64,000 bases of DNA from Lachnospiraceae bacterium. Lineage in GTDB: Bacteria; Bacillota; Clostridia; Lachnospirales; Lachnospiraceae. Positions 9,568-26,838 of this stretch are shown in pieces. Below the pieces are notes generated by a model. The model was not told where the DNA came from and did no database searches. It worked only from the letters and a program-made list of their open reading frames with translations. Each line of letters starts with the position of its first letter. The first letter of the stretch is position 1. The stretch lies in NCBI GenBank assembly GCA_019420465.1, contig JAHZHB010000119.1, positions 1,002 to 65,001 on the forward strand, in the 5' to 3' direction. Made by a program: the position numbers and the translations under genes.

Positions 9568-9597
9568 ATCATAAACGCAGGATCGCGCACTTGTCAA
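9568..9597 (-). promoter_or_regulatory. sigma-A-like promoter for the valS leader
   Basis: Minus strand reads TTGACA-18 nt-TATGAT. Confidence 0.5.
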
Positions 9598-9630
9598 GGC
9601 TTTTACGGCTCCCTGATCATGATTTATGGC

Positions 9631-9655
9631 AAAAAGGGGGAGAATTCACTCCCCC
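9631..9655 (-). terminator. intrinsic terminator after the ABC transporter operon
   Basis: Minus strand reads GGGGGAG-tgaatt-CTCCCCC followed by TTTTT. Confidence 0.6.
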
Positions 9656-9662
9656 TGCCATA

Positions 9663-10508
9663 TTATCCTTTGACAGCGCCCGCTGTCACGCCAGCCACCA
9701 TATATTTTTCCAGGAATATAAATACCAGCGCTATAGGGATGATGGAAATAGCAGCTGCAGCCATTATTTCCCCCCAGATAATGGTGTATTCTCCCTTTAA
9801 GGAGGAAATACCTACGGTCATTGTCCATTTCTCCGGTTTCGTGATAAATGTCCTTGCAAACAGGAACTCGCTCCAGCCAAGAATTGCCGAATACGTTGCC
9901 GTAGCAGCAATACCCGGTGTAACTAACGGAACAACAACCTTACGGACCGCCTGTATCCGGCTGCATCCGTCAATTCTTGCGGATTCCTCCAGCGTAATCG
10001 GAATACTGTCCAGATAGCCTTTCATCATCCATGTGGCAAAAGGAATAATGAAAGTAATATTGCTGATGATCAAAGATGCAAAGTTATTGATCATCTTCAT
10101 ATTGGTAAACATCATATACAACGGTACGATCAGCAGTGTTTCTGGAAGCATACGCACCACCAGTAAAAAGAAGCCCAGAAAATTGGTGGAGCGGTATTTA
10201 AATCTTGACATACTGTACGCTGCCATCGTGGATACAATAATTGCAATCACTGTGCTGAATGCCGTTACAAAAATCGAATTTCCAAACCATTGCAGTATGG
10301 GATGTGATTCTACGATTTTTTTGAAATTATCCAGTGTAAGCTGTGACAGCTTTGGCAATACACGGACATTGTCAAGCAGCGCACTTCTCTGTGTCAGCGA
10401 TGTCACCAGCATCCAGTATAAGGGAAATGCAAGAATCACCACTGAGAGAATGATAAGCATATACATACCTGCACGCCGTACTCGTTTCGACTGAAAAGCT
10501 TTCATCAC
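9663..10508 (-). CDS. carbohydrate ABC transporter permease (MalG-like)
   Basis: 281 aa, six hydrophobic segments, EAA-type loop (EESARIDGCSRIQAVRKVVVPL). Confidence 0.9.
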   Translation of the reverse strand: MMKAFQSKRVRRAGMYMLIILSVVILAFPLYWMLVTSLTQRSALLDNVRVLPKLSQLTLDNFKKIVESHPILQWFGNSIFVTAFSTVIAIIVSTMAAYSMSRFKYRSTNFLGFFLLVVRMLPETLLIVPLYMMFTNMKMINNFASLIISNITFIIPFATWMMKGYLDSIPITLEESARIDGCSRIQAVRKVVVPLVTPGIAATATYSAILGWSEFLFARTFITKPEKWTMTVGISSLKGEYTIIWGEIMAAAAISIIPIALVFIFLEKYMVAGVTAGAVKG

Positions 10509-10521
10509 TTATCACTCCCTT

Positions 10522-11436
10522 TCAATAAAACTGTTTTTTCAGTGACGGCATTGCCAGAATCACAAACAGGGAACAAACCAGTAGGCTCACAATGCCGATG
10601 CTGGAAGCATAGCCCATATTATAATATTTAAACGCCTGATTATACAGTAACAACGGCAATGTTTCTGTAGCCTGATTCGGTCCTCCACCTGTAATGGAAT
10701 ACACCAGATCATAATTTCTGAAAATCCATAAGCCATTCAGAAGTAATGACGTCACAATAATGGACTGCAGTGCCGGAAGCGTGATATTTCTAAATTTCTG
10801 CCATGCATTTGCACCGTCAATAGATGCCGCCTCATAGTAATCTCCCGAAATCCCCTTTAATCCAGCCAGTAAAGTCAGCGTGAAAAACGGATAACTTTTC
10901 CATATGGTTGCTGTAATAACCGTAGCAACTGCTGTTTTTTCTCCCGACAGCCATTTTACATTCTGACTGATCAGATGCAGCGATTTTAAAATCGTATTCA
11001 GGATGCCGTAGTTACCATCAAACAGCCAGGTAAACAACAGACCTACTACTACACCCGGAATCGGCCATGCCAGCAGGATCAGCGTACGCACCAGTTTCTG
11101 AAAGCGAAATCTTTTGTTCAGCAAAAGCGCCAGACCCAGACCAATCAGGAAAGAGATCGTTAAGGCAATCGCAGTAAACAGTACCGAACGCCACAGGGCA
11201 CTCCAGAACGCCGCATTCGAAAACAGTTTTCCGTAGTTATCCACAGTCAATGCACTTACATTATCTGTTTTGCTGCCAATAAACTTTATGTTCTGAAAAC
11301 TCAGTTTAATTGTTGTGAACAGTGGATAAATAATCAATGTAAGAGAAAATACTGCTGCCGGTAATGCAAACGAAACAGCCATTCTGTGATTCTTTTTTTC
11401 ACTGATACTTTTTTTGTTTCTGGTCATTTTTGCCAT
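10522..11436 (-). CDS. carbohydrate ABC transporter permease (MalF-like)
   Basis: Multi-pass protein with the EAA loop YEAASIDGANAWQKFRNITLP. ATG 11436 has an AGGTG RBS; the track start 11445 is a GTG. Confidence 0.9.
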   Translation of the reverse strand: MAKMTRNKKSISEKKNHRMAVSFALPAAVFSLTLIIYPLFTTIKLSFQNIKFIGSKTDNVSALTVDNYGKLFSNAAFWSALWRSVLFTAIALTISFLIGLGLALLLNKRFRFQKLVRTLILLAWPIPGVVVGLLFTWLFDGNYGILNTILKSLHLISQNVKWLSGEKTAVATVITATIWKSYPFFTLTLLAGLKGISGDYYEAASIDGANAWQKFRNITLPALQSIIVTSLLLNGLWIFRNYDLVYSITGGGPNQATETLPLLLYNQAFKYYNMGYASSIGIVSLLVCSLFVILAMPSLKKQFY

Positions 11437-11449
11437 TTTACACACCTGC

Positions 11450-12778
11450 TTATTTCAGTTCTGTAGAAATCTTATCCTGCATTCCCTTCAATGTCTCTTC
11501 AACATCTGCATACGGCTCTGTTACCATGGTCATAACACCATCGATGATATACTGTGTAAACTCTCCATAAACCTTTTCATAACCGGACGGAAGGATTTCC
11601 TGTGCTTTTTCTGCATCCTCAACAAACTGCCCCATAAACGGGTTTTCTTCCAGAATCTTATCATCGATAGCCGTGCTGCTCGGAGACGGAGATCCCACCT
11701 TTTCCATATACAGCTTCTGGAAATCGTCTTCCGTTACCATCTGGATAAATTCCCATACAAGGTCTTTCTCTTCGTCGCTGATCGAAGCCGGGATATGCAG
11801 ACTGTTACTCATGGAACCCGGTGTAGTCTCAAACGGTACAGAGGCAACAAGAAGATTCGGCTTGATGTCATCAGCTGCATTTTCAATCAGGGATGCCACC
11901 CACGGCCCATCAAAAATCATAGCCATTTTTCCCTCAACGAAATACTGCCGTTTCTGCTCTACAGAAAGACCTACCGGTGTATAGTTATTCTCAAACAACG
12001 ACTGATACAGCTTCAGTGCATCCACGGTTTCCTGCGATGTCATAGGTGCCAGATCGCCATTGTCCGACCATTTTCCACCCATACCCACAACAAATGTTGT
12101 CGCTTCATTGTAGAAATTCGTATCAGTTACCTGGCATGCACCAAATCCATAAACATCCGGATCGCCATCGCCATCTTTGTCCACTGTCAGCTTTTCTGCC
12201 GCCTGCATAAAAGAGTCCATATCCGTTGGTACTGCCATACCAGCATCGTCAAACATCTGCTTGTTGTAGTACATCGAATAACCATTTCCAAGCAACAGAA
12301 CACCATAGTAATCATCCCCCACTTTGAGGCCATCCTCCAGACTGCTCCATCTGTCCAGAATATCTGTCTTTTCCAGCCTGTCATTCAGAGAATCAAACCA
12401 TCCCATATCCGAAAACTGTGCAGCATATCTGGACGGAATATGTGTGATCTGCGGTGCATTCTCAGCCGCATATAAGGTTGTCAATGTATCTACATAACTG
12501 TCAAAAGGTACCTGATACAGATTGATTCTGACATTTTCATGTCTGTTTTCAAATTCAGCCACAGCTTCCTCCCAGAACTCCTGAAATCCCGGTTCTGTAG
12601 CCTGCCAGCTTGGAAACTCCAGTACGATCTCATCTCCAGTACTACTTGTTTTTGTTTCTTCAGCAACCGGTTCCGATCCTGCTGCCGACCCTGTCTCTGA
12701 GGATGCTGTCGATCCACATCCCACCAGACCTGCTACCATCGCTATTGCCAAAAATGCACTGACCATTCTTTTTCTCAT
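11450..12778 (-). CDS. ABC transporter extracellular sugar-binding lipoprotein
   Basis: Lipoprotein signal with lipobox LVGCGS. Family-1 solute-binding-protein size (442 aa), adjacent to two permeases. Confidence 0.85.
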   Translation of the reverse strand: MRKRMVSAFLAIAMVAGLVGCGSTASSETGSAAGSEPVAEETKTSSTGDEIVLEFPSWQATEPGFQEFWEEAVAEFENRHENVRINLYQVPFDSYVDTLTTLYAAENAPQITHIPSRYAAQFSDMGWFDSLNDRLEKTDILDRWSSLEDGLKVGDDYYGVLLLGNGYSMYYNKQMFDDAGMAVPTDMDSFMQAAEKLTVDKDGDGDPDVYGFGACQVTDTNFYNEATTFVVGMGGKWSDNGDLAPMTSQETVDALKLYQSLFENNYTPVGLSVEQKRQYFVEGKMAMIFDGPWVASLIENAADDIKPNLLVASVPFETTPGSMSNSLHIPASISDEEKDLVWEFIQMVTEDDFQKLYMEKVGSPSPSSTAIDDKILEENPFMGQFVEDAEKAQEILPSGYEKVYGEFTQYIIDGVMTMVTEPYADVEETLKGMQDKISTELK

Positions 12779-12798
12779 CTTTTTTCTCCCTTTTATCT

Positions 12799-14136
12799 TT
12801 ATACATTCGCTCCGTTTTCTTTAAGTTTTTTTCTTAACACCGGAACATCTACCGTCCGAGGCCGTATATGCTTTTCTGCTGCCATTGCTGCGGCCATACC
12901 TGCGGCTTCACCGATTGCCATGCAGGATGGCATAATTCTTGTTGAGGCCAGAGCCTTTGCCGTAGTTGAAATACATCTTCCCGCCACTAACAGATTCTCT
13001 GTCTCTTTTGGTATCAGGCAACGATAGGGAATATCATAGCAGCCATCCTCACTTTTAATAAAAGAAACACCCCATCCGTTCCCTTTGGGATCGTGAATAT
13101 CTATGCAGTATCCGTTTTTCGCAATACAGTCCTCAAATTTTCTTCCCTGCAGGATATCTGTACTGTTCAAAACGTATTCGCCCTCAATTCTTCTTGTTTC
13201 TCTTATGCCAATACCATTCGGAATACTGGTGATATGTGCCTTCTCCATGCCCGGAACATTTGCCGTCAGAAAGCGGACAACCTTTTTCAACTGTCTTCTG
13301 CCCTCTATTTCTGCTTCCGAAAGCTCATAGGCATCTGCACCGTTTTTTCCACTGACCCGGATTGTATTTACATAGGTCAGTTCATTTTGCCGCATTGTAC
13401 CGGCCCAGATATTATGATCCTTATGAGGGAAAATTCCATCCCGTAAAATAATATCATTCCATTCTGTCAGTTTCCCACTGATATGCAGATTGTATTTGTG
13501 ATCTCCGCCAATGGGACACTCGATGATCGGATTTTCCGAAAAATGGCCCGTTGCCTTTTCCACATCAACATCACCCAGCTTAAACAAAAGGCTCATCGCC
13601 TGACAAAGCCCGTCCTCTTCCCGGCCAAGCTTATACTCTGCACCTGCAAAATTGGCCAGATCCCCGTCACCGGTTGCATCTATAAAACAGTCCGCTGTAA
13701 ATTTTGTCAGACCATTTTTATTGGCGACAAGAATCTTTTTTAACACATTCTCTTCTACTTCTGCACCGCATACAAAAGAATGGTACAATATATCACAGCC
13801 ACTTTCCAGAAGCATCTCTTCTGCTACAATTTTTACCCATTCCGGATCTATCATGGTCACAGAATTCAAATGACCACCACTGGTCCTTATATGTCCAAGT
13901 GCAGCTTTTTCTTTATACAGCCGTTCCATCAGCTCCTGGGCCTGCCCCTGTATGATCTGGACACCATTTCTGGTGAAAAAATCAATGAATGGCAGACCAG
14001 AAGCAGCGGTTCCGCCCACATATGCATTTTTCTCAATCAGCAAAACTCTTGCATCGGTTCTTGATGCGCTGAGTGCCGCAGAAATTCCGGCTGTACCGCC
14101 ACCGGCAACAATCACATCATATGTTTCCTGATACAT
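12799..14136 (-). CDS. FAD-dependent oxidoreductase (PF12831-like)
   Basis: N-terminal dinucleotide fold DVIVAGGGTAGISAAL and an IDATGDGD motif. GGAAGGAGG RBS precedes ATG 14136; the track ORF extends to 14271. Confidence 0.8.
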   Translation of the reverse strand: MYQETYDVIVAGGGTAGISAALSASRTDARVLLIEKNAYVGGTAASGLPFIDFFTRNGVQIIQGQAQELMERLYKEKAALGHIRTSGGHLNSVTMIDPEWVKIVAEEMLLESGCDILYHSFVCGAEVEENVLKKILVANKNGLTKFTADCFIDATGDGDLANFAGAEYKLGREEDGLCQAMSLLFKLGDVDVEKATGHFSENPIIECPIGGDHKYNLHISGKLTEWNDIILRDGIFPHKDHNIWAGTMRQNELTYVNTIRVSGKNGADAYELSEAEIEGRRQLKKVVRFLTANVPGMEKAHITSIPNGIGIRETRRIEGEYVLNSTDILQGRKFEDCIAKNGYCIDIHDPKGNGWGVSFIKSEDGCYDIPYRCLIPKETENLLVAGRCISTTAKALASTRIMPSCMAIGEAAGMAAAMAAEKHIRPRTVDVPVLRKKLKENGANV

Positions 14137-14333
14137 ATTCTGTCCGACCTCCTTCCTGTTTCTCTTCAGCGTTCGAACACCTTGTGACTGCATCTTATAT
14201 AATTTCCATTCTTTTTTAAACGTGGTAATCTTTCTATTTTGTTTGTTTTCTTTCGAATTTCTCCAAAACACTTTCTTTCTAAATAGAATCGTCTATAATA
14301 TTTTTAAGAACATTCTGAAAAGGAGATCTTATT

Positions 14334-16043
14334 TTGCGACAGCTTCCCTTTGAAAAAATTCTGTACAAAAACTACATGTATCTTATCCTGACAGCGGCTA
14401 TTCTGATCAGTGTTTTTACGGCTGCCGTAGATGTTTCCACAACCCTGAATAATGAAAAGAAAAATATGCAGGATTCCCTAAAACAGGCACAAATCAACAT
14501 CAATACCCATTCCCAGATGATCGAAGATTATCTCACTCTGACACACAGCAATTCCCAGCTGCAGAAAAATCTTCGAAAGCTATACGCCAGACCATCTGCC
14601 TCTCTGCTTACCGCTATAAATGAAAAGCTGTTTTCAGTCGATCTGTTTAAAAAATCTCTGGATTCCATGCAGATTTTTGCTTATGAGGAAGCCTCTTTTC
14701 TTCCAGCTTTTTCAGACACTTCGCAGTATGGAAACGCCATATTTTCTGCCGAGAGTGTATCTGATGCTGACTGGTTTCAGCAGACACTGGACAGCACAGG
14801 TAAAACCTACTGGTTTACAGACGATGATAATTTCCGAAAACCCACCCTGTGTGCTGCCCGTGTTTTATACGACACCAGCAATCCGGAACATATACTGGGC
14901 GTTTTAAAAGCCAATGTTTCTGTAGAAAAAATGATCCGACATCTGAAAACCCTTTCTTTTGGTAAAAAAGGATATACCTTTATTTCTACGGCAACTGTTT
15001 CTCTTTACGTTGATGCAGATGTTTCCACAACAGATCTGCCTGCTGTCTCTGGGGAGCCGGAACACTCCTCCCTCTCACACCTTGTTATGACATATCCCGT
15101 AATAACAGACGGCTGGCATGTAACAGGTGTTATTGACAACCGCGCACTATATCGCAGTACCTTCCAGAATCTGCTGTGGATCTTACTTATATTTATCCTT
15201 GTTTTGATAGCAGCCGCTCTTTTATCGCGGGAAAACAGCCGGAGAATCTCTGCACCGGTAAACCAGCTTTGCGAACATATGCTAAAGCTGGAAACCTGTC
15301 AAAAGATTCCTGCTGCAAACTGTACCGAAATCCGCCAGCTATATGACACCTACAACAAAATGCTTGAGAAAAATGAAGCTCTGATAAAGTCCAGAGAGGA
15401 TGCCCTTTTAAAATTCAAACAGGCAGAAATGGCAGCACTACAGTCCCAGATGAATCCACATTTTATCTATAATACGCTGGAATCCATCAACGCGCTGATT
15501 TCTATCGGCGATACCGAACATGCCTCTTTAATGACTACCGGTCTTGGCAATTTTTTGCGCAGCAGTCTGAATAACGGCAACAACTATATTTCTTTGCAAA
15601 AAGAACTGGAACAGGTAATTTCCTACATACAGATTCAGAAGTTTCGTTATGCGAACCAGATTGAATTACGGCTTAACGTACCTGCTGTTATTCCGGATTA
15701 CCGGATCATCAAACTGATTTTGCAGCCACTAGTGGAAAATTGCATCTTGCATGGTTTTAAAGATCTGGATGAAACAGGAATTATCACCATCGGCATTTCA
15801 GAAACAGACACCGATCTGATTCTCTCTGTCGCTGATAACGGTTTTGGAAGTGATATTGAAATGCTGAATTATCTTGTCCGGCAGAAAACACTGTACAGAG
15901 AAGATAATGTGAATTTTTACTGTATACAGAATGTATTTCACCGTCTGTATAACTGTTACGGAGAAAACAGCAGTCTGCTTTATACAGAAAACGCGGACGG
16001 CGGTGTTACTGCCACCATCCGTATTGCCAAAAAGGTTCTGTAG
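14334..16043 (+). CDS. sensor histidine kinase, YesM-like
   Basis: Two TM segments flank a sensor domain. H-box region QSQMNPHFIYNTLESI plus a C-terminal HATPase. TTG start with AAAGGAG RBS. Confidence 0.85.
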   Translation: MRQLPFEKILYKNYMYLILTAAILISVFTAAVDVSTTLNNEKKNMQDSLKQAQININTHSQMIEDYLTLTHSNSQLQKNLRKLYARPSASLLTAINEKLFSVDLFKKSLDSMQIFAYEEASFLPAFSDTSQYGNAIFSAESVSDADWFQQTLDSTGKTYWFTDDDNFRKPTLCAARVLYDTSNPEHILGVLKANVSVEKMIRHLKTLSFGKKGYTFISTATVSLYVDADVSTTDLPAVSGEPEHSSLSHLVMTYPVITDGWHVTGVIDNRALYRSTFQNLLWILLIFILVLIAAALLSRENSRRISAPVNQLCEHMLKLETCQKIPAANCTEIRQLYDTYNKMLEKNEALIKSREDALLKFKQAEMAALQSQMNPHFIYNTLESINALISIGDTEHASLMTTGLGNFLRSSLNNGNNYISLQKELEQVISYIQIQKFRYANQIELRLNVPAVIPDYRIIKLILQPLVENCILHGFKDLDETGIITIGISETDTDLILSVADNGFGSDIEMLNYLVRQKTLYREDNVNFYCIQNVFHRLYNCYGENSSLLYTENADGGVTATIRIAKKVL

Positions 16044-16073
16044 TTTTATCCATACACAGGAAAGGATGATCTT

Positions 16074-17684
16074 ATGTTACATATTGTTTTAGTGGATGAT
16101 GAACAGCTGATCATTCATCATCTCATACAGATAATTTCCGGCTTTGATATTCCACATAAAATTGTCGGTACAGCAACCAATAATGAACAGGCTTTGACAA
16201 TCATCCGGGAGACCCGTCCAAATCTTGTCATTACAGATATTCGCATGGGTTCATCCAACGGTCTGGATCTTTGTGAAACCCTGAGCACAACTATGCCGCA
16301 GACAAAGCTTATCCTTCTGTCCGGTTATGATGATTTTCATTATGCACAAAAGGCTTTTCGTTATAATGTTTTTCATTATCTTTTAAAGCCCATCAATGCC
16401 AAAGAGCTTTACGAGCAGCTGGCGCAGGTTTCTGCTATACTGCAAGATGAAGCCGCCACAGAAGCAAAAGATTTTCGTCTGAAAGCGCAGATCCATGATT
16501 GTCTGCCCATGATGCAGGAATGGTTTTTCAAAATCATCCGGGATAATCAGACGGATCTTACTGCGATTGACTCCGTTTTTCAGCTGTTTGACATTGATAT
16601 TTTAAATCCGTTGTACCAAACTGTATTTGTCTCGTTATCTCAGGAAAAAAACATGCAGGAAATAGAAAAGGACTTTATGAATGTTTCCAAGCTGGCTCAG
16701 ACGATCCGGCTTTTTATAGATACTTCCATAAAATCCATCTATTTTTATGATGCAACCTCCATTACACTGATTCTTTCAGCTAGCTATGACCGTCCGGAAA
16801 TCCTGCATCAGCAAAGCTATGAACTGGCTGACCGTATCCGGCAATATCTGGATTTCAGTTATGAAAATCCATTCTCCATAGGGATGTCTACAACTGTGCA
16901 GCAGATTGGCGCACTTCGCCAGTCCGTAAAGGATGCTTTTTCCGCCAGCAAGTACTCCTTCTATATCGGTTTTAATGAAATTATATGTATTACCGATGTC
17001 GAACTGCGCTTAAACAATCCTATGGTTCCAAACTTCAAATATATACAGGAAGATCTTTTAAAGCACTTAAAACTGTGCGATCTGCAAAGTGCACTGCAAT
17101 ACCTGAATATTTATCACCTCAATGTGCTCCAGCTACATGACAGCCAGGCACTTTCCAGAAACAAATTTCTGGAACTGTACTACTATTTATCAAACGCGCT
17201 GAATGAAGAATTTCAGTCTGAACTGCCGTTTCATCCGGATATCGCAGGAAAAATAGAAAACAGTACAAATCTTGATGACCTGAAGATGATTCTGGTGCAA
17301 TATATTCAGGATGTAATTTTCTCTATCGAACAGCTGCGCACCAGTAAAAGCAGAAAGCTGATCGATAAAGCCAAACAATATATTCAGGATAACTATGCGC
17401 ATGAGATTTCTCTGGATTCCATCGCCTGTGAGATTGGTCTGTCTGCCTGCTATCTGAGTACCTTGTTCAAAAATATTGAAACTGTTTCGTTAAAAGACTA
17501 TATCACCACGATTCGTATAAATGCATCCAAAAAATACCTCAAGGATATTGATCTGAAAATATACGAGGTCGCCGCAAACGTAGGATATACGGACTCCCGC
17601 TATTTCAGTCAGTTATTCCGCAAAAAAACGGGATATACTCCTGTACAGTACCGAGAATTTATACAAAATTCTTCCAAAAAATAG
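16074..17684 (+). CDS. response regulator with AraC-type HTH output domain, YesN-like
   Basis: N-terminal receiver domain (DDE...D...K pattern) and C-terminal AraC HTH (GYTDSRYFSQLFRKKTGYTP). Confidence 0.85.
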   Translation: MLHIVLVDDEQLIIHHLIQIISGFDIPHKIVGTATNNEQALTIIRETRPNLVITDIRMGSSNGLDLCETLSTTMPQTKLILLSGYDDFHYAQKAFRYNVFHYLLKPINAKELYEQLAQVSAILQDEAATEAKDFRLKAQIHDCLPMMQEWFFKIIRDNQTDLTAIDSVFQLFDIDILNPLYQTVFVSLSQEKNMQEIEKDFMNVSKLAQTIRLFIDTSIKSIYFYDATSITLILSASYDRPEILHQQSYELADRIRQYLDFSYENPFSIGMSTTVQQIGALRQSVKDAFSASKYSFYIGFNEIICITDVELRLNNPMVPNFKYIQEDLLKHLKLCDLQSALQYLNIYHLNVLQLHDSQALSRNKFLELYYYLSNALNEEFQSELPFHPDIAGKIENSTNLDDLKMILVQYIQDVIFSIEQLRTSKSRKLIDKAKQYIQDNYAHEISLDSIACEIGLSACYLSTLFKNIETVSLKDYITTIRINASKKYLKDIDLKIYEVAANVGYTDSRYFSQLFRKKTGYTPVQYREFIQNSSKK

Positions 17685-17967
17685 AAAATATGTTGCCATC
17701 CCGGGAAGAAATCCAAAATTTCTGCCCGGGGTGCAGCATATTTGCAAAAAAAATACAGCCTCCATATCGGAAACTGTTCAGTGTGCGATGTGTAAAAGGA
17801 GGACGGGCTACCCCGGTTCAAGATCATGTAGAGGAAGTATCATCATTTTTGTTGCGGAGGAAAAACGATGATCATTGATATCGATCCGGAGTATCCACCC
17901 AGCCGTTTAATCTCTTATTCCGTATTCGAGGCTATTGGCCAAGTGAATATCACATACAGGATATTCC

Positions 17968-17999
17968 ATAAAAATAATGCCTGCTCGAAAGAAGCAGAC
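17968..17999 (-). terminator. intrinsic terminator ending the cobalamin-riboswitch transcript
   Basis: On the minus strand, a 7-bp stem GUCUGCU/AGCAGGC with a 7-nt loop is followed by AUUAUUUUUA. Confidence 0.55.
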
Positions 18000-18039
18000 A
18001 TCTAAGACGATCCATATGGATCGAATAGCTGTTCAACTT

Positions 18040-18245
18040 TCTTCGGAAGTCTCAACCTCACTACACAAGCAGGTTTCCTGACTTACAGATCAACGCTAGG
18101 CTCTCCTTCTCATATGCTGAGGACATACAATGGATATTTGAGCTTCACTCCCTGCTCACAGTGACCGGATCGCTCAGGACTTACACCTGATTCCCTCTTT
18201 CAACTGGTACGAGTACCAGAAGCACTTGCATAGGCAATATGGAAT
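18040..18245 (-). ncRNA. cobalamin (B12) riboswitch aptamer with no downstream CDS
   Basis: Minus strand reads AGAGGGAAUCAGGUGUAAGUCCUGAGCGAUCCGGUCACUGUGA (core around 18195..18184). The B12 box AGUCAGGAAACCUGC lies at 18083..18069. Confidence 0.8.
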
Positions 18246-18256
18246 AATACGATAGT

Positions 18257-18285
18257 ATAATAGCATCCTCTGGCAGATCTGTCAA
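18257..18285 (-). promoter_or_regulatory. near-consensus sigma-A promoter driving the riboswitch
   Basis: Minus strand reads TTGACA (18285..18280), a 17-nt spacer, then TATTAT (18262..18257). The -35 box sits inside a 9-bp-stem hairpin (18270..18299) that may terminate the upstream operon. Confidence 0.6.
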
Positions 18286-18325
18286 CCCAAATCTGCCAGA
18301 GAATACATATTTCTCCTCCGTTTTT

Positions 18326-18811
18326 TTACCTGAGTTTCAAATCCAGATGGCTCTCCTCAAGGACACCACCATACCGCTCCGGTAATGCCGCCTGCAGTTC
18401 TTTTTTGCAAGTGGACACATTGACCTGCTGCCATGTTTTCGTGTGGATTTCCCATGAGGATGCGATATCCGCTTTGCTGTCCCGGCTACGGACACGCTGC
18501 AGCTGAGCGGAAAACAGGGGACCTGCAATATGACATTTATACACAGTTCCTTCACTTTGATACAGCTTCTGTCCACAGTGCAGCAGTACTTTTACCGGAT
18601 GCGTAAACCAGATCGCATCGACCAGTGCGGCTCCAAGCTTCGAATATTCCTTTGGCAATCCGTACAGAAGCCTTTTCTGATCCGGACTATACATCTCTTC
18701 AAGGTAAAAGCAGTCACCGGATGCAAAAGCCAGATAAAAGCGACACTCCTTTTCCTGCAGCAGCTTCTGTACAGTGTCCGGCAGCATTTCCGGCTTTAGT
18801 TTTTCCTGCAT
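18326..18811 (-). CDS. hypothetical protein (161 aa)
   Basis: The ORF overlaps the upstream gene's stop by 16 nt. No family recognised. Confidence 0.5.
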   Translation of the reverse strand: MQEKLKPEMLPDTVQKLLQEKECRFYLAFASGDCFYLEEMYSPDQKRLLYGLPKEYSKLGAALVDAIWFTHPVKVLLHCGQKLYQSEGTVYKCHIAGPLFSAQLQRVRSRDSKADIASSWEIHTKTWQQVNVSTCKKELQAALPERYGGVLEESHLDLKLR

Positions 18812-20052
18812 GGCAGATCCATCCTTTCCAGGTCGCTGTCGGGATGATTGCCACAGAGCTTATAGTTATCATCCACGGCCACAAGACCATAACTTTTTCT
18901 TATCTCATAAAATTCTTTTGTCAGACGCACATAGTAGGACAACGGTGGCATCGGCTGCATTCCAAGCTTTGCATGTTTATGTGGCCGCCAGATCGTACTC
19001 AGGCAGACCACTCCGTGTTTTGCAAAAAAGTCACATCCCTCCAGATTCGAGCGCAACGCATCGTCCACACTGGTAAATCCATACGGTCTCGCCAGCTCTG
19101 CACCGGCAACCACCTGTGTATACACATTCCCCGGTCCAAAGACATCCACGGCATCGAGAGTTCTCTTTATCCACGTATCGTACCCAATCCATCTTTCTTT
19201 GCCCGGACAAAGCTTTTTAAACAGCGTCTTGTCCATCACTTCGATATTCGGAGAATAGCTTGTCAGCCCCGTCTCCTGATACAGCCGCTGTACATCCTTT
19301 TTTTCGTAGGCCGGTGCCATCAGCTGACTGTGGAATCTGCCGTCAAACAGTGTACCGATGGAATGCAGAATACGGACATACCGCGCAATCTCTTCCTCAA
19401 ACGGATATCTGCCACGATAATCCGAGCCACCGGAAATATAGATCTGGGAATAACGGCCCGGCTCTTTTAAAGCCTCCCGCACCGTCTCAAAAATATCCTG
19501 CTCGTCCACCTCTGCCGTCTTTGTCTCCGAGAAAAAAGCACAGTATCTGCACTGCTCTCCGGCTTTCCAGAACAGACATTTCTGAAAAGCCGTAAGGATC
19601 AGCTTCTGCGCCCTCGCCAGTGCGACCGCCTCCATCGGCGTTTTCTTCGACGTCACCTGTCCGTAAAAGGACGGTCGGGGGACAAAATCGATCTCATCCA
19701 CCATCTGATCATCTTCCAGCAGCAGAAAGCACCCTGTTTCCGGATCATAATCGGCAATATAGGGATTCTCATACGGTTCCCCGTAATTGATATGGACAAA
19801 GGTTGCATCCCGCAGAAGGATGGCTCCCGGATATACTTTTTTTACTTCTTTTCCACCGGCCAGTCCAAAAGGCTCCAGCTTGCCAAAGCAGTAATCCGGT
19901 GCCTGCACCCGGTCCATTGCCCGTTCTGTCAGGGCAACTCCATGCCAGATCATGCTCAGTTTCAGCAAAACAAAGGGAGATATCGTGGGATATTCCCGCT
20001 GCAGCTGCTCCCATTCCCTGACTTTTTTGTATTTGTTATCCTGTATATTCAT
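18796..20052 (-). CDS. radical-SAM-like protein with atypical CX8CX2C motif (putative)
   Basis: Contains CLFWKAGEQCRYC followed by a glycine-rich YISGGSD segment, and has TIM-barrel-like length. AGGAGA RBS precedes ATG 20052; the track start is 20088. Confidence 0.5.
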   Translation of the reverse strand: MNIQDNKYKKVREWEQLQREYPTISPFVLLKLSMIWHGVALTERAMDRVQAPDYCFGKLEPFGLAGGKEVKKVYPGAILLRDATFVHINYGEPYENPYIADYDPETGCFLLLEDDQMVDEIDFVPRPSFYGQVTSKKTPMEAVALARAQKLILTAFQKCLFWKAGEQCRYCAFFSETKTAEVDEQDIFETVREALKEPGRYSQIYISGGSDYRGRYPFEEEIARYVRILHSIGTLFDGRFHSQLMAPAYEKKDVQRLYQETGLTSYSPNIEVMDKTLFKKLCPGKERWIGYDTWIKRTLDAVDVFGPGNVYTQVVAGAELARPYGFTSVDDALRSNLEGCDFFAKHGVVCLSTIWRPHKHAKLGMQPMPPLSYYVRLTKEFYEIRKSYGLVAVDDNYKLCGNHPDSDLERMDLPCRKN

Positions 20053-20140
20053 AAATGTATGTTCTCCTGTTGTATCTTCCAACGGCATTTTCCAAATACA
20101 AATCTAAATATTTCACTACGTTTTTTGTATGTGCCCCTGC

Positions 20141-20857
20141 TTACAGCCACACAAGACCGCAGATAATCCCTGTATTCAGTCCGATCAGGAACACAAAATC
20201 TCTGATGCGCACCTTTGTCTCAAAGGCCACCTTACGCGGGGCATCATTCTGAAACCCCCTCGACTCCATCGCCATGGCCAGACTCTGCGACCGCTCCATG
20301 GCCTGCACAAGCATCGGGATGATCCGTTTCGGCGAAGCAAATCCGGCTTTTACGCCGCGTACCTTCAGAGACGCGCCCACGATACCATACTCTTCTTTGA
20401 CCACCGGGAAAAAGTGGTACGCCGCCAGTATACCATAGGCAAATTTTGGTGGCAGCTTAAACTGCTGCATCAGACTCATGACCAGCTCAAAGGCATCCGT
20501 GGTAAACGCATACAGCATACCAAGTCCCCCGTAAGCCAGAATACGGCTTGCCAGCTGCATGGCCGTCTGCATATTGCTGGCATACAGTGTTCTCTGGCCC
20601 AATGCGCTGACCTCGACACCTGCCGTTGTTCCGTGATCACCAAAAAACAGACCCGTTGTAAACATGCCAAGGGCCGCAATACCAAAGGGCACCATTGCCA
20701 GAAGAAGTCCCTTACGATTGATGCCCGGTGTCAGAAATGTAACCAGAAGACAGGCCACTGCCACTACAAGGTTGACACGGATATGAAAAGTTGTGGATAA
20801 GATCAAAGAAGCCACGATAACGCTTAACATTTTATATGCCGGATTCAAACTCTTCAT
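20141..20857 (-). CDS. ykoC: ECF transporter T component (YkoC-like)
   Basis: Multi-pass membrane protein. AAAGGAG RBS precedes ATG 20857, a 26-nt overlap with the ATPase gene; the track start 20971 is not credible. Confidence 0.8.
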   Translation of the reverse strand: MKSLNPAYKMLSVIVASLILSTTFHIRVNLVVAVACLLVTFLTPGINRKGLLLAMVPFGIAALGMFTTGLFFGDHGTTAGVEVSALGQRTLYASNMQTAMQLASRILAYGGLGMLYAFTTDAFELVMSLMQQFKLPPKFAYGILAAYHFFPVVKEEYGIVGASLKVRGVKAGFASPKRIIPMLVQAMERSQSLAMAMESRGFQNDAPRKVAFETKVRIRDFVFLIGLNTGIICGLVWL

Positions 20858-22325
20858 TATTTTCCGCTCCTTTTCTGTATACACGCATTTCCTCGTCCGT
20901 AAGTGCCCGGATCTGCCGGTTTTCCACCAGAAAGATCTGGTTGCTGATCGCCTGGGCCAGCCCGAGGTCATGGGTTGCCAGGATCATCGTCAGACCCTCT
21001 TTGATCCTTTTAGCCAGCAGCGATAAAATAAACTTCGTCGACTTTTCATCCTGGGCATACGTCGGCTCATCCAGCAGCATGATATCCGCCTTGCTCAAAA
21101 GCATCGACAACAGCGCCAGTCTTCTCTGTTGCCCCTGGCTGATCGCATACGGCGAATAGGCTTTGTATTCCCACAGGCCGAAGTTTTTCAGGGCTTCTTC
21201 TGTTTCTTTCTTCATGCTTTCCGGATCTGCCTGTTTTCCCTCCCGCATGGCGAGGGTTTCCATGATTTCCTCCTCTATCGTCAGCTTTAAAAACTGAAAT
21301 CTGGGATTCTGAAAGACCAGACCGATCTTTCCACGGCTCTGCAGATCGCCTTTCGTTTTCAATATTCCTGCCATACCGTACAAAAGTGTTGTTTTGCCAC
21401 TGCCGCACCGGCCCACCAGAGCCGTCACGCTGCCCTTTTGGATGGCAAATGACAGATGCTCCATAAAGCAATGCTTCCGGTCATGGTAAAGGGCTACATC
21501 CTGCGCCTGCAAAATGACCTCTGCTGCCGGTAAGACCTCCGGCTTTTTTATATCATCCAGATAAGAGCCTTCTTTTGCATCAGCATAAAAAAGCCCCAGG
21601 TGCTCAAATTTTTCCCGGCTGTTGAAAAGCTCTGCGGGATATATGCTCGTTTCATCCAGATTACCCTCTGTCCGCATCAATACAACACGGCTTAAGAAAG
21701 GCTTCCACCAGTCCAACTTATGATCCACGATCAGTAAAGTCATACCCTCTGCATTCACTTCCCTCAGCATTTTGGCCAGACTTTTGCAAGACGCCGGGTC
21801 AAGATTGGCAAAGGGCTCATCTAAAATCAGCATTTCTGCACCCGTGGCCAGTGCCGTGCCCAGTGCCAGCTTCTGTTTCATACCACCAGAGAGCTTCTGG
21901 ATCTGCGTATGCATTTCCTGCTCCAGACTGATCTTTTGCAGGATTTCCTGCGTGCGTGCCACCAGATCTCCTTCATAATTGATATTTTCCAGTGCAAACA
22001 GGACTTCCTGATCGACCCGGCTCATACAGAACTGGTCATCCGGATTCTGGAACAGGATGGACAGTTTCTTGGAACGTGCCGCCGCCCCAAAAGAAGAGAG
22101 AGATTCTCCCTCTAAAAGAATCTCTCCCGACATTTCTCCTGAATATTGCGGATACAGTCCACTTAAACAATAAGCCAGTGTACTTTTTCCGCAGCCGGAT
22201 GGACCCATAAGCAGCACGACCTCTCCACGTTTTACAGAAAGCGACAGCTGTTGAAAGACCTTTTTTTCTTCCATGCCATAGGAAAAACTCAGGTCCTTAC
22301 AGGTTAATATCTCATCCATTTTCAT
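20832..22325 (-). CDS. ykoD: ECF transporter duplicated ATPase (YkoD-like)
   Basis: Two ABC cassettes: Walker A GPSGCGKST and GRCGSGKTT, signatures LSGGMKQ and ISQGQQ. Confidence 0.9.
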   Translation of the reverse strand: MKMDEILTCKDLSFSYGMEEKKVFQQLSLSVKRGEVVLLMGPSGCGKSTLAYCLSGLYPQYSGEMSGEILLEGESLSSFGAAARSKKLSILFQNPDDQFCMSRVDQEVLFALENINYEGDLVARTQEILQKISLEQEMHTQIQKLSGGMKQKLALGTALATGAEMLILDEPFANLDPASCKSLAKMLREVNAEGMTLLIVDHKLDWWKPFLSRVVLMRTEGNLDETSIYPAELFNSREKFEHLGLFYADAKEGSYLDDIKKPEVLPAAEVILQAQDVALYHDRKHCFMEHLSFAIQKGSVTALVGRCGSGKTTLLYGMAGILKTKGDLQSRGKIGLVFQNPRFQFLKLTIEEEIMETLAMREGKQADPESMKKETEEALKNFGLWEYKAYSPYAISQGQQRRLALLSMLLSKADIMLLDEPTYAQDEKSTKFILSLLAKRIKEGLTMILATHDLGLAQAISNQIFLVENRQIRALTDEEMRVYRKGAENNEEFESGI

Positions 22326-22909
22326 TATTTTCTACCTAATTCATATCCCTTTAACAGGCCGGTCTTAGCCAGTCCGTCACCGATCATCTTGCAGATGAAA
22401 CCGGAGAAGATTAAAGAACTTACCAGACGGATCACAAAGAACAGGATCAGCACCGGAACCGACAGCTTGCCGTATCCGGAACGGACAAAGCTCCAGGCAA
22501 AGCTGGTGATGCAGGCGCCGGCAGATGCGATATACATCACAGCGCCGTCAAACTTGCGGTATTTGTTGGCGGCAAAGACGATCTCCGCACCGGCACCCTG
22601 AATGATACCGGCCACGATCACCATCGGTCCGAACCAGTTGCCCAGCAGAACTTCGATCACAGCGGCGATAACTTCAGCTACAACAGCCACACCCGGCTTC
22701 TGCAGAATATAGCCGGCCAGTGTTGCCGCCATAAACCATACACCAAACAGGATCTCATTGCCCAGCTGGCTAAGGCCTGTGGCTGCCAGTGCTGCAGAGA
22801 TAAAGGATGCGCCGTAAACAGCACCCAGATATACCACACCAAATACGATACAGATCATTGCGATCAGGATAATTTCATTTAACTGCCATGTATTTTTCTT
22901 TTCTTTCAT
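22325..22909 (-). CDS. ykoE: ECF transporter S component (YkoE-like, HMP/thiamine precursor)
   Basis: 194-aa six-helix membrane protein positioned between the ykoF-like and ykoD-like genes. Confidence 0.75.
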   Translation of the reverse strand: MKEKKNTWQLNEIILIAMICIVFGVVYLGAVYGASFISAALAATGLSQLGNEILFGVWFMAATLAGYILQKPGVAVVAEVIAAVIEVLLGNWFGPMVIVAGIIQGAGAEIVFAANKYRKFDGAVMYIASAGACITSFAWSFVRSGYGKLSVPVLILFFVIRLVSSLIFSGFICKMIGDGLAKTGLLKGYELGRK

Positions 22910-22913
22910 CTTC

Positions 22914-23549
22914 TTACTCCTCCACTGTCGGACTGTTACAGTTCATTGTAAAATGTAAAATATAATGGGGCACGCTCTTTTCCATCAGTGTGCAGACATC
23001 CGTCAGATAATCCATCACCTCATGGACATCTCCCTCAATACGGGTCGCATAATGGATCGTTTTCGGCTGAAGGCCTCTGTCCTCGGCCATATACCATACC
23101 TTTGCGATATCGTCGATATAGTCACCTGTACCCATCGGATACAGAGCAAGCTTACAGTGTACCGGGAAATGGATATCCTGCACCTTCGCTTTGTTCGGTG
23201 CTTCTCCCTCTTTTCCCAGCACGCTGTCACCGTCGCTGTCGCCCGGGCAGCCCTTGGAGAACTGTCCTTCCAGAGCCATATGTACACCCTCGCGGTAAGC
23301 GTTGATAAACAGTGCTTTCACTGCATCTGCGACATACGCAAGCTTTCCACGGTATACCGTAGATAAAGCATCTGACTCGCTCCATACATAGGATGTATCG
23401 GTTTTCTCCAAAGATCCTACGATCAGATCGATAAACTGATCGCACATCGGATACAGGGAAAAACGGCATCCGGAGATTGGCAGAGATGTGCCTCTTCCGG
23501 CCCATGGCAGATCCGGTCTGTTGCAGCCGCTGCAGCAATTGTTTTCCAT
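22914..23549 (-). CDS. ykoF: HMP/thiamine-binding protein YkoF
   Basis: Colinear by eye with B. subtilis YkoF (RFSLYPM...CPGD...LALYPM tandem repeat). GGAGG RBS lies 8 nt before ATG 23549. Confidence 0.85.
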   Translation of the reverse strand: MENNCCSGCNRPDLPWAGRGTSLPISGCRFSLYPMCDQFIDLIVGSLEKTDTSYVWSESDALSTVYRGKLAYVADAVKALFINAYREGVHMALEGQFSKGCPGDSDGDSVLGKEGEAPNKAKVQDIHFPVHCKLALYPMGTGDYIDDIAKVWYMAEDRGLQPKTIHYATRIEGDVHEVMDYLTDVCTLMEKSVPHYILHFTMNCNSPTVEE

Positions 23550-23563
23550 AGTCATTTCCTCCT

Positions 23564-23720
23564 CTTTTACATGCTAAGGCAACCATGAGAAACACACTTC
23601 GCGAGTTTCTCATGGTTTTCGCGGCAGTCGCCAAGGCCTTGTGCAAGCACAGGCTTTGGCTCGTTGCTCGCGTAAGTAAAAGAAACCTCCACCGGAGCTT
23701 TCTTTTATCTGCTAAGGCAA
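23564..23720. repeat. 19-nt imperfect direct repeats bracketing a ~119-bp highly structured insert in the ykoF leader
   Basis: CTTTTACATGCTAAGGCAA (23564..23582) versus CTTTTATCTGCTAAGGCAA (23702..23720). The interior has a perfect 13-bp stem (23581..23617) and a second 9-bp stem (23630..23660). Confidence 0.6.
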
Positions 23721-23870
23721 AAAAAATACTTTCCTTGGTAAAAGAAAGTATCTCGGTCATATCCTCTGTATATTGATTTAATGGTTGAAATACTTCCCTA
23801 CGCCGGTATTACCCAGATCAGGTACAAAGGGTCGAATCTTTATTCTCTCAGCCTTGCGGCTCCCCCAGTA
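23719..23870 (-). promoter_or_regulatory. TPP (THI-box) riboswitch with terminator
   Basis: Minus strand reads CUGGGGGAGCC...GCUGAGAGA...ACCCUUUGUACCUGAUCUGGGUAAUACCGGCGUAGGGAAG. The terminator is an 8-bp stem ATACTTTC/GAAAGTAT plus T8 (23751..23719). Confidence 0.9.
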
Positions 23871-23978
23871 TTATAATATTTTTTTGCACGGGCTTAAGTA
23901 TATAACGATATGTCGGCTTTGTCAATGAAAGCATATTTTATGCTATAATACAGGAAATGATTCGAAGGGAGGACAGCT

Positions 23979-24932: not shown

Positions 24933-25106
24933 TCACAACAAATGCAGAATATCTTCTACTGTCTCTTCCGTCTCCCCTGTCATCCTCGCAATCTTCTTTA
25001 CCATATATCCCTGACCATATAATAAAGTCACGATCTTTGACACAGCTTCTGCATGGCCTCGATTTTCTACAACATCTAATACATCACACATATTCTTATT
25101 TTCCAT
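24933..25106 (-). CDS. 57-aa ORF with HTH-like tail (possible remnant of an Rpn/transposase-like C-terminus)
   Basis: MENKNMCDVLDVVENRGHAEAVSKIVTLLYGQGYMVKKIARMTGETEETVEDILHLL. Below the track threshold and 15 nt downstream of the ATPase stop. No clear RBS. Confidence 0.3.
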   Translation of the reverse strand: MENKNMCDVLDVVENRGHAEAVSKIVTLLYGQGYMVKKIARMTGETEETVEDILHLL

Positions 25107-25121
25107 AATCTCTTAAAATTG

Positions 25122-26459
25122 TCATAAAAACATCGCCATATACAACGGAAGATGTATTACATTTTCTTTTATAAGAACATCTTTTGTATATAAAATATAT
25201 GCCTGTCCAATTTTCCCTTTAAATTTACTTCTGAATTTATCTAATGATGAGTGTTTTCTGTATGTTCCAGACTTCACTTCGATTGGACATATTTTTCTTT
25301 TTTCACGAATCAGAAAATCAATTTCCATATTATTTTTACGATTATTCGTATCTGATCTGGAGTAAAAGAAAAGTTTGTGACCACTTGATCTCAGCTCCTG
25401 TGCCACAATATTTTCCATCAGCATTCCTTCATTCACATGTAATCGGTCCAGTAAAATATCTCTGTACAATTCATTATCTGTAAATTTATCATCCATAAAG
25501 GAATGCGTCACTAAAAGCCCTGTATCTGCCATATAACACTTTCTGGTCGTATGTTCCTCACTCATTGCCAAACCAACGGTCGGTTCTGTAGCATTGTAAC
25601 AATTATTTACTACCATTGCCTCTGCAAGCCACATAAAAGCATTTTCATACTCTCGAAATCTGGCCCCTTTACTAATCCCGGAGAGTTTATATTTTTTTTC
25701 AGTTTTTGATAATTGCGATGGTAGCTCATCAAAGATTGATAATACCTTTGCTTCGTAACCTCTTGCAAATTTTGTGATATCCTGGCGATACAGTGTAAGA
25801 ATTCTTTTTTTAATCCGGTCTGCATCTTCAAAGTTTTTTGTCTTTCTGTAAGCATCTACTACCTGTGGCATGCCTCCTGTTAAAATATATTGTCTGAAAT
25901 CATTCATTACTCTTCTGTGAATTGCCTGACCTAATGGTTGCACCTTTTCAAAACATTCTCGTAAATAAGGGACTGTCGTTTCATCTCCCATTGCCCACAA
26001 AAATTCCTCAAAATCCAGTGGATACATTTCCACATGTTCTTCTTCAGACGGTATCACAATATTTTCAATATTTACCTTTAACGATATTAATGAACCAGTT
26101 TCCAGGTAATCATATCGTGCGTCTTTCACTAAGTATTTTATCAATTCTCTCGCCTGTGGATATCTTTGCACTTCATCAAAAATGATAAGTGATTCTCTGT
26201 TATAAAGAATTTTTCTATAATATGCCGATAATTTATGAAAAAACATATCAAAATCATCTATATCATTTTCAAATATATCACGTACCTCTTCTGGCAGGTG
26301 TGCAAAATCAATTAACAAATAACTTCTATATTCTGTTCTTCCAAATAATTCTGCAATATAGCTTTTTCCTACACGACGCGCTCCATCCAATAACAGCGCA
26401 CAACTCCCCTGATCTTTTTCTTTCCATTCTAATAATCGATCATAAATTTTTCGCTTCAT
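25122..26459 (-). CDS. COG1373-type AAA ATPase with DUF4143 / PD-(D/E)xK-like C-terminal domain
   Basis: Walker A GARRVGKS near the N-terminus. The C-terminal motif EIDFLIREKRKICPIEVK (25325..25272) fits D...ExK. The gene is very AT-rich compared with its neighbours. Confidence 0.8.
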   Translation of the reverse strand: MKRKIYDRLLEWKEKDQGSCALLLDGARRVGKSYIAELFGRTEYRSYLLIDFAHLPEEVRDIFENDIDDFDMFFHKLSAYYRKILYNRESLIIFDEVQRYPQARELIKYLVKDARYDYLETGSLISLKVNIENIVIPSEEEHVEMYPLDFEEFLWAMGDETTVPYLRECFEKVQPLGQAIHRRVMNDFRQYILTGGMPQVVDAYRKTKNFEDADRIKKRILTLYRQDITKFARGYEAKVLSIFDELPSQLSKTEKKYKLSGISKGARFREYENAFMWLAEAMVVNNCYNATEPTVGLAMSEEHTTRKCYMADTGLLVTHSFMDDKFTDNELYRDILLDRLHVNEGMLMENIVAQELRSSGHKLFFYSRSDTNNRKNNMEIDFLIREKRKICPIEVKSGTYRKHSSLDKFRSKFKGKIGQAYILYTKDVLIKENVIHLPLYMAMFL

Positions 26460-26500
26460 TTGTTGCCATCCTCTCGCACAACATTTCTCTTTACAATACT

Positions 26501-26530
26501 ATTATACTCACAAAAGGCAGTTTTATTCAA
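26501..26530 (-). promoter_or_regulatory. sigma-A-like promoter of the ATPase gene
   Basis: Minus strand reads TTGAAT-18 nt-TATAAT, about 40 nt upstream of ATG 26459. The proximal repeat copy fills the spacer. Confidence 0.5.
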
Positions 26531-26591
26531 TGTATTTTCTCACAAAAAGGCAGTTTTAATTTTATGTTTTTATCACAAAAAGGCAATTGCA
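26508..26591. repeat. three direct copies of TCACAAAA(A)GGCA(G/A)TT.. spaced 32-33 bp
   Basis: Copies lie at 26508..26525, 26540..26558 and 26573..26591, the third degenerate at its 3' end. Confidence 0.7.
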
Positions 26592-26838
26592 GTGATATGT
26601 TTCCTACAAAGCCTTTGTCCTTCTGTCCCACAGATCTCCCTGTTCTGTTTTGATTTTCGTTTTGAAATACATAACGACTGTTAAATTTGAAATGATAACA
26701 CCTGATGACGAACTCTGATCAGAAATGCATAATTTATAATGCTAAAGTTATTAACTATTTTATTCGTCTTATTTACTATATCCTTTTCCCCAAGTTTTGT
26801 CAATCCCTTTATGACAGCTTCTCCTGCGTAGTTATGTG

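Follow-up and report, generated by a model that had tools for sequence, protein, structure and literature searches.

A candidate cobalamin-riboswitch-gated non-coding RNA unit in a Lachnospiraceae genome

What does a riboswitch control when no gene follows it? On the minus strand of a 64,000-nucleotide stretch of a Lachnospiraceae bacterium genome (contig JAHZHB010000119.1; hereafter the window), a cobalamin (vitamin B12) riboswitch lies between a promoter and a terminator of its own. Facing it is a gene for a YesN-like, AraC-type response regulator (hereafter yesN). An earlier interpretation of these letters, made without database searches (the sequence-only reading), had proposed that the element is a B12-responsive small RNA (sRNA) or an antisense regulator of yesN, or alternatively the relic of a lost target gene. 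By combining RNA family searches, terminator and promoter scans, folding, and comparison with related loci, we arrive at the first of these answers. We estimate a probability of roughly 60% that the riboswitch belongs to an independent transcription unit encoding a cobalamin-riboswitch-gated non-coding RNA, with an architecture resembling that of EutX and Rli55.

To the best of our knowledge, few riboswitches control non-coding RNAs, and the B12-dependent examples, EutX/Rli55 and AspocR, all come from pathogens and from eut or pdu biology. Competition for B12 is a major ecological force among gut commensals. If confirmed, the unit described here would be a further B12 case, situated in commensal gut Lachnospiraceae and equipped with an effector unrelated to the ANTAR sponge.

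Anatomy of the riboswitch unit

The minus-strand B12 aptamer noticed in the sequence-only reading was confirmed by cmscan. The match to RF00174 at 18244..18051 was full-length (model positions 1-189/189) and, at 95.3 bits (E 1.9e-22), well above the gathering score of 31.5. Conserved core motifs (GGGAA...GGUG, a GCCACUG-like segment, and the B12 box AGUCAGGAAACCUGC) were visible in the cmscan alignment. The box occupies 18083..18069 of the minus strand, exactly where it had been placed, and was unchanged in 10 of 10 sequences in an alignment of the window with nine related loci. The riboswitches of two of these loci, L003 and L004, scored 96.9 and 95.1 bits against the same family. In L012, the most divergent copy, the first aptamer hairpin reads CUGAUG/CAUCAG instead of the CUGGUA/UACCAG of the window, a difference of two compensatory pairs. 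The remaining aptamer helices are invariant, so they are uninformative on covariation.

Upstream of the aptamer, the predicted TTGACA-17-TATTAT promoter also held up, matching the consensus at 11 of 12 positions and carrying a TG upstream of the -10 box. From its position, transcription would be expected to start near 18250. All six relatives that cover this region retain TTGACA, while the -10 box is either TATTAT or TACTAT. The spacer between the hexamers is constant in length (17 nt) and varies in sequence. A perfect 13-bp inverted repeat, UCUGGCAGAUUUG / CAGAUCUGCCAGA (18269..18300), straddles the -35 hexamer. It is only partly kept in relatives, is not followed by a U-run, and might serve as an operator or represent the 3' hairpin belonging to the operon upstream.

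The aptamer is joined to a first intrinsic terminator, T1, by a linker that is identical in the 10 sequences except for the tetraloop of its hairpin (AUAU, GUAA or GCAA). T1 corresponds to the hairpin and U-run that had been expected after the aptamer. It consists of an 11-pair stem (18002..17976) followed by AUUAUUUUUAU, ending at 17968. The terminator scan also detected it in L004, L009, and L011. Stem changes among relatives preserve pairing (U-G to U-A, U-A to U-G), and the loop and the length of the U-run vary as well. A candidate antiterminator, CCUGCUUG (18073..18066), lies at the junction of the B12 box and P1; its complement, CGAGCAGG, is part of the T1 3' arm. Constrained folding allowed two partners for this arm, either CCUGCUUG or the 5' strand of P1. 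Together with our reading of the sequence, this suggests that the T1 3' arm may switch between alternative pairings.

The roughly 290 nt beyond the aptamer's terminator had been described as non-coding. This is correct insofar as no credible open reading frame (ORF) lies there, but the region is not empty: a conserved domain of 170 nt and a second intrinsic terminator, T2, fall within the 283 nt that separate T1 from the yesN stop codon. As had been claimed, no ORF preceded by a ribosome-binding site follows the riboswitch. Only three minus-strand ORFs of at least 20 aa occur between T1 and the yesN stop (20, 28, and 72 aa), none of them with a Shine-Dalgarno sequence and none conserved. For example, the 20-aa ORF (17969..17907) starts in the U-run of T1 without a Shine-Dalgarno sequence, has CTG in place of ATG in L030, and is embedded in conservation that reaches far beyond it; we rejected it as a candidate gene.

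Consensus folding of the 3' domain predicts a short hairpin with a variable loop (H1), a helix (H2), and a long helix capped by an apical hairpin (H3). The apical loop of H3 is CCUCCGCAAC (17860..17851), which is invariant in all 10 sequences, and its CCUCC has a predicted unpaired probability of 0.98. Two more CU-rich motifs are likewise invariant, CUUCCUCUAC (17837..17828) and CGUCCUCC (17805..17798), for both of which partial pairing is predicted. A stretch of 176 nt contains two copies of CCUCC and three of UCCUC. Two or more copies of CCUCC arise in shuffled sequences with a probability of 0.03, and the minus strand of the window has a background of 0.33 per kb for this motif. Folding of the domain is better than that of shuffled versions (z = -2.57), although the fold is only a prediction. 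Among its 65 pairs, eight show one-sided compatible changes and three alignment cells break a pair.

The 3' domain did not resemble any family that we searched. Rfam, applied to 17600..18350 at E up to 10, returned no credible family other than RF00174 and left the domain unmatched. Blastn against plasmid and phage collections gave no match. The string UGGGUGGAUAC was considered as part of a T-box, but no T-box match appeared in 17600..18350 at a permissive E-value. Similarly, UGGGUGGAUACUCCGG (17885..17905, minus strand) resembles the T-box sequence GGGUGGNACCGCG but gave no RF00230 match at E up to 10, and the likeness is probably coincidental.

The unit closes with T2, composed of ACAGUUUCC-GAUAU-GGAGGCUGU and a run of eight U, 62 nt before the yesN stop. 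It was detected in relatives by the same terminator scan. Substitutions in its stem (U-G to C-G, U-G to U-A) preserve pairing, while its loop varies. Between the 3' domain and T2, the sequence drifts: 11-17 of 25 alignment columns differ (~50%), and L029 carries a 7-nt insertion.

Conservation and changing neighbourhood

To place the unit among relatives, the neighbouring radical S-adenosylmethionine (SAM) protein was used as a query against the genome collection. This search returned L003 and L004, two close relatives with amino-acid identities of 98% and 92% that are Lachnospiraceae-type metagenome-assembled genomes, together with the more distant L005 and L008 (Bilifractor), which both lack the riboswitch. 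Further copies were reached through contigs encoding a small ORF on the opposite strand of the unit. A 20-mer scan of the metagenome collection produced 16 hits, of which L025 was the sole true homologue and the other 15 were chance matches. Apart from assemblies of the same organism, to which the window is identical, no identical copy of a 161-aa protein encoded just upstream of the unit was found.

Conservation of the unit exceeds that of its surroundings. Counted from the -10 box to CGUCCUCC, identity of the core with L003, L004, L009, and L025 is 95.9-98.5%; over its 466 nt there are 13 differences to L004 (97.2%) and 19 to L009 (95.9%). Genes flanking the unit are 72-92% identical to those of L004 and L009 overall and 55-80% identical at third-codon positions. 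In the same four relatives, the aptamer differs at 2-5 of 194 nt (1-3%), compared with 17 in L012. The platform and T1 differ at 2-9 of 84 nt over all covering copies, and at 2-6% of positions in the four. The 3' core differs from the window at 4-16 of 173 alignment columns across the nine relatives (2-9%). By comparison, the promoter surroundings differ at 12-44%, except in the near-identical L025.

What variation exists falls in hairpin loops, spacers, and U-run length, and the changes within the stems of T1, T2, and the apical hairpin are pair-compatible. Since conserved blocks alternate with freely drifting spacers and loops, the alignment indicates purifying selection on the entire unit, the sequence past T1 included. 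Recent horizontal transfer, for which an evenly high identity would have spoken, was rejected as the source of the high identity on account of the same patchiness.

DNA homology with L003 and L004 extends from window position 24947 to about 17743, shortly beyond T2, and resumes at 9603. The intervening islet of 8.1 kb has a GC content of 39-46%, as opposed to about 50% in its flanks. Pfam assigned its genes to two ATP-binding cassette (ABC) permeases, a solute-binding protein, a flavin adenine dinucleotide (FAD) oxidoreductase, a YesM-like kinase, and the YesN-like AraC-type response regulator. L003, L004, L009, and L025 lack the islet, and their sequence continues past T2. Because the islet is missing in relatives and homology jumps from 17743 to 9603, it is specific to the window genome. 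The sequence-only reading had set the riboswitch at the exact edge of this islet; the edge lies instead at about 17742, right after T2.

The yesN product has 536 aa with a receiver and an AraC-type helix-turn-helix domain, and is preceded by a gene for a His_kinase/dCache kinase. The gene is convergent with the riboswitch, has its stop at 17684, 283 nt past T1, and possesses a terminator-like hairpin of its own at 17700..17730. At about 17314..17323, an N-gap in the ENA scaffold (L001 11499..11509) interrupts yesN, and an independent Logan contig stops at 17323; the continuity of the 536-aa ORF therefore rests on the scaffold join. The junction of unit and islet (17743) lies within a contiguous contig and is unaffected by this gap.

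In the four islet-free relatives, no gene belonging to the riboswitch follows it. T2 is succeeded by 55-115 variable nt and then, on the same strand, by the promoter (TTGACA-18-TATGAT) and T-box leader of valS. The window retains this arrangement on the far side of the islet, with a valS T-box leader at 9558..9330 (minus strand; 90 bits) behind a TTGACA-18-TATGAT promoter at about 9593..9564. At 90 bits, this T-box falls below the Rfam gathering score of 93, and a default scan misses it.

Other copies have yet other neighbours. L009 and L010 share the context of L003. In L011, a different insert of about 2.5 kb separates T2 from valS (a BlaI/Penicillinase_R-like gene and three small ORFs; L011 250..3000), and the stretch from T2 to the valS promoter is a hot spot for insertions. 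On the opposite side, L012 lacks the entire operon of thiamine pyrophosphate (TPP) riboswitch, ykoFEDC, and radical-SAM gene, and the unit stands directly beside a lipase gene. Promoter, aptamer, T1, 3' domain, and T2 are nonetheless kept together in nine related loci. Since the unit stays in place as the DNA on either side is swapped, the comparison indicates that it is independent of its flanking genes, which supports the sRNA reading.

Table 1. Features of the riboswitch unit and its immediate surroundings in the window
Feature	Position	Strand	Basis
Sigma-70-type promoter: -35 TTGACA 18285..18280, 17-nt spacer, -10 TATTAT 18262..18257	18257..18285	-	promoter scan
Aptamer, canonical RF00174 type with peripheral extension	18051..18244	-	cmscan
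Expression-platform linker including hairpin CGAUCC-NNNN-GGAUCG (18023..18008)	18003..18050	-	alignment
T1, riboswitch-proximal intrinsic terminator	17968..18002	-	terminator scan
Conserved non-coding 3' domain, 170 nt, putative effector	17797..17967	-	alignment, folding
Hairpin H1 (variable loop), predicted	17967..17945	-	consensus fold
Helix H2, predicted	17944..17897	-	consensus fold
Long helix H3, predicted, with apical hairpin 17875..17839 (12 bp)	17896..17801	-	consensus fold
Variable spacer between 3' domain and T2	17778..17796	-	alignment
T2, second intrinsic terminator	17746..17777	-	terminator scan
45-aa ORF with GGAGG-7-ATG start region, probably not a gene	17868..18005	+	gene callers
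Lower-GC islet, 8.1 kb (context only)	9604..17742		DNA comparison, Pfam, GC

Proposed action of the RNA and competing explanations

Our data suggest a model in which B12 decides between two RNA species. The strong promoter, with its upstream TG, would drive the unit. With B12 bound, T1 would form and release a short RNA of about 280 nt, consisting of the riboswitch alone. Without B12, pairing of the T1 3' arm with CCUGCUUG or with the 5' strand of P1 would compete with T1, and readthrough would continue for about 225 nt to T2, yielding a long RNA of about 500 nt. The 170-nt 3' domain would be present in this form alone and could then serve as an effector in trans. Its exposed CU-rich motifs, which resemble anti-Shine-Dalgarno sequences, might pair with the ribosome-binding regions of target mRNAs, such that these targets would be regulated under B12 scarcity. 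The apical loop CCUCCGCAAC is the strongest candidate for such pairing. Ligand-dependent termination, the two species, action in trans, the base-pairing mode, and the existence of targets are all predicted here from sequence.

The overall design matches that of EutX (Enterococcus faecalis) and Rli55 (Listeria monocytogenes), in which a 5' riboswitch allows the full-length sRNA only without B12 and the effector resides in the 3' part (PMC8237595, PMC5821096). In each case, a stand-alone unit without a protein product has its own promoter, a 5' cobalamin aptamer, a terminator after the aptamer with a short form predicted in the presence of B12, a 3' extension on the long form, and a final terminator. 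The implied logic is also the same, with the effector RNA made only when B12 is lacking. What distinguishes the present unit from EutX/Rli55 and AspocR is its different effector, its canonical RF00174 aptamer, its genomic setting, and its commensal host clade.

The mode of action is more tentative than the architecture. We consider it possible, at well below even odds, that the long form represents a class of B12-gated, trans-acting RNA not described before, found in gut Lachnospiraceae, whose effector with anti-Shine-Dalgarno loops would silence a set of mRNAs by base pairing, or control them in another way, when B12 is scarce. The main alternative is that the long RNA acts as a protein sponge. 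Base pairing is favored because the effector is free of ANTAR sites and its loops resemble anti-Shine-Dalgarno sequences. RsaE/RoxS and the hairpins of RNAIII are Firmicute examples of base-pairing sRNAs with C-rich seeds. As in those RNAs, C/U-rich hairpin-loop motifs could pair with Shine-Dalgarno sequences and a Rho-independent terminator closes the transcript; here CCUCCGCAAC is predicted to be exposed and is invariant in 10 sequences, and T2 is the intrinsic terminator at the 3' end. Unlike them, the window RNA shows no sequence homology and no Rfam hit, and its synthesis would be gated by a metabolite-sensing riboswitch rather than by a transcription factor. SreA/SreB, the Listeria SAM riboswitches that act in trans, offer a looser parallel in that a terminated riboswitch transcript may persist as a functional small RNA. 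Theirs is a terminated mRNA leader with a second job, while the present unit has no mRNA and has a dedicated 3' domain past T1. If true, base pairing would extend riboswitch-gated sRNAs beyond the single protein-sponge paradigm of EutX/Rli55. A riboswitch placed before an sRNA effector would, if confirmed, represent a reusable design and point to a B12-limitation regulon.

Several considerations weigh against this model. Where transcription starts, where the two RNAs end, and how they respond to B12 are deductions from the letters of the locus. At 8 bp, the predicted antiterminator is short, and other partners are conceivable from folding. Enrichment of CU-rich motifs is modest (P about 0.03), and on the opposite strand, where a 45-aa ORF with a textbook start is situated, the same motifs can be taken for GGAGG ribosome-binding sites. 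None of the 65 pairs in the fold of the 3' domain shows a compensatory change. As the homologues are all close relatives, the sequences are too similar for this count to speak either for or against the fold. The element is restricted to a very narrow clade, to which the metagenome scan added one true homologue. Finally, a search of the 64-kb window for target complementarity gave only chance-level matches (at most 11 nt at E of at least 2). An 11-nt complementarity at the start of an M18 aminopeptidase gene was judged to be chance, and the duplexes that RNAduplex proposed with 53 translation-initiation regions of the window had unrealistically long loops and were discarded.

Explanations that tie the riboswitch to a neighboring gene must account for the exchange of those neighbors. 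Were the element a relic, it would once have regulated a B12-related gene, lost for example through the islet insertion, and its leader would now be decaying. The missing downstream ORF fits this history, as does a location bordering a site that holds different insertions in the window and in L011. Yet a downstream gene is missing from the insertion-free relatives too, every copy retains intact promoter hexamers, and translation and family searches of the small ORFs revealed no coding-sequence remnant. Moreover, conservation is 91-99% in the aptamer, platform, T1, and the 170 nt that follow, as against 55-80% identity at neighboring synonymous sites, which contradicts decay and makes a relic very unlikely. 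Even less probable is control of yesN in the manner of AspocR, which is antisense to pocR in Listeria monocytogenes. Here, readthrough without B12 would enter the 3' end of yesN in antisense and lower its expression. Like AspocR, the window element is a cobalamin riboswitch without a downstream ORF that converges on an AraC-family gene, PocR likewise being of that family, and cobalamin riboswitches are over-represented in antisense positions (190 cases, P 1e-10; PMC9943018). This geometry is found in the window genome only. Unlike the AspocR arrangement, the convergent gene arrived with an islet that is absent in L003, L004, L009, and L025, where the unit is nearly identical, and L011 has other genes in its place. 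The conserved T2 would stop readthrough short of the yesN stop, yesN has the hairpin of its own noted above, and nothing in it is a counterpart of the conserved 3' domain. The regulator is of YesN type and adjoins a sugar transporter, and the islet genes (sugar ABC transporter, FAD oxidoreductase, YesMN) have no link to B12. The antisense reading is thus not supported, since the islet insertion created the juxtaposition and T2 would block readthrough; such control of yesN would be incidental and is largely refuted by synteny. More generally, antisense riboswitch calls made from gene orientation alone can mislead after recent insertions, and checks of synteny and terminators are needed. The least probable proposal makes the riboswitch and 3' domain a two-checkpoint leader that ancestrally controlled valS. 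In L003, L004, L009, and L025, the unit does precede the valS promoter by 55-115 nt and has the same orientation. That promoter is near-consensus and serves a T-box leader of its own (90 bits), however, T2 is conserved, and insertions of 8.1 kb and about 2.5 kb are tolerated in between. We know of no functional link between B12 and valyl-tRNA synthetase, and hold this proposal to be scarcely credible.

Two other explanations concern the 3' domain itself and are doubtful rather than remote. The 45-aa ORF on the plus strand might be a real gene, to which the riboswitch RNA would be unrelated or for which it would act as a B12-gated cis-antisense regulator. Its GGAGG-7 nt-ATG start is textbook, gene callers predict it in several assemblies, the reading frame of its first 29 codons is kept in every copy, and the long riboswitch RNA would pair perfectly with both its ribosome-binding site and its coding sequence. 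The C-terminal third, by contrast, is not kept. A protein search recovered six clusters only, with identities of 89% or more. Their lengths (34, 36, 45, and 70 aa) differ through 1-nt indels in the T1 U-run and H1 loop, exactly where a minus-strand RNA element would tolerate change. Amino-acid changes (I3V, L14V, S16P, Y30H/C, R31M/Y, and H34Q; by another count, five positions) far outnumber the one silent substitution, where the synonymous rate of the flanking genes predicts about 7. Conservation runs on undiminished through the 70 nt that precede the ATG, nothing promoter-like was found upstream on the plus strand in the window or its relatives, and the product had no Pfam match and no homologues below 89% identity. 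The ORF is probably not a real gene. We assign a comparably low likelihood, if anything a shade lower, to a sponge of the EutX/Rli55 type, in which the long form would sequester an RNA-binding regulator (e.g. an ANTAR protein like EutV) without B12. The shared architecture of promoter, B12 riboswitch, ligand-favored terminator, 3' effector, and final terminator argues for it, and a review proposes that EutX-like sRNAs may exist outside eut loci in clostridia (PMC5821096). ANTAR sites are defined as tandem hairpins with A1/G4 hexaloops (PMC8934654), and a search of the unit for this dual hexaloop found none above chance. There was only one candidate, with a 3-bp stem, and the module holds two hexaloops where shuffles hold 2.1 +/- 1.5. 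The predicted conserved loops measure 10 and 13 nt, and the short H1 loop varies between relatives. The 3' domain has no sequence similarity to EutX/Rli55, and the aptamer is canonical RF00174 with a peripheral extension, whereas theirs are reported as class IIb (PMC11477304). The unit also lies outside any eut locus, and no eut, pdu, ANTAR, or other B12-related gene was present among the window ORFs scanned with Pfam. In place of hexaloops, the putative effector carries CU-rich anti-Shine-Dalgarno-like motifs, which suggests base pairing over protein sequestration, though the long form may instead act as a sponge for a protein of a different kind.

Other features of the window

Upstream of the unit, a TPP riboswitch (23876..23778, minus strand; 74.8 bits) heads an operon of ykoF, ykoE, ykoD, and ykoC (18326..23876). 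The operon also holds a 'variant' radical-SAM protein (NF045502; 18796..20088) and the 161-aa ORF (18326..18811), which had no Pfam or NCBIfam match. A radical-SAM enzyme and the 161-aa protein are unusual cargo for a THI-element transporter operon. Beyond it, a low-GC patch at 25000..27000 (31-39% GC) contains a gene for an AAA_14/DUF4143 ATPase (25122..26459) and is rearranged relative to L003. This patch is probably another variable insert.

Farther along the window, the minus strand carries a cluster of surface-protein genes (42525..55300). It comprises a 2390-aa ORF, a Listeria-Bacteroides repeat protein, two sortases, and a SpaA/pilin-type protein. The cluster is a sortase-dependent pilus or adhesin locus, unrelated to the riboswitch unit.

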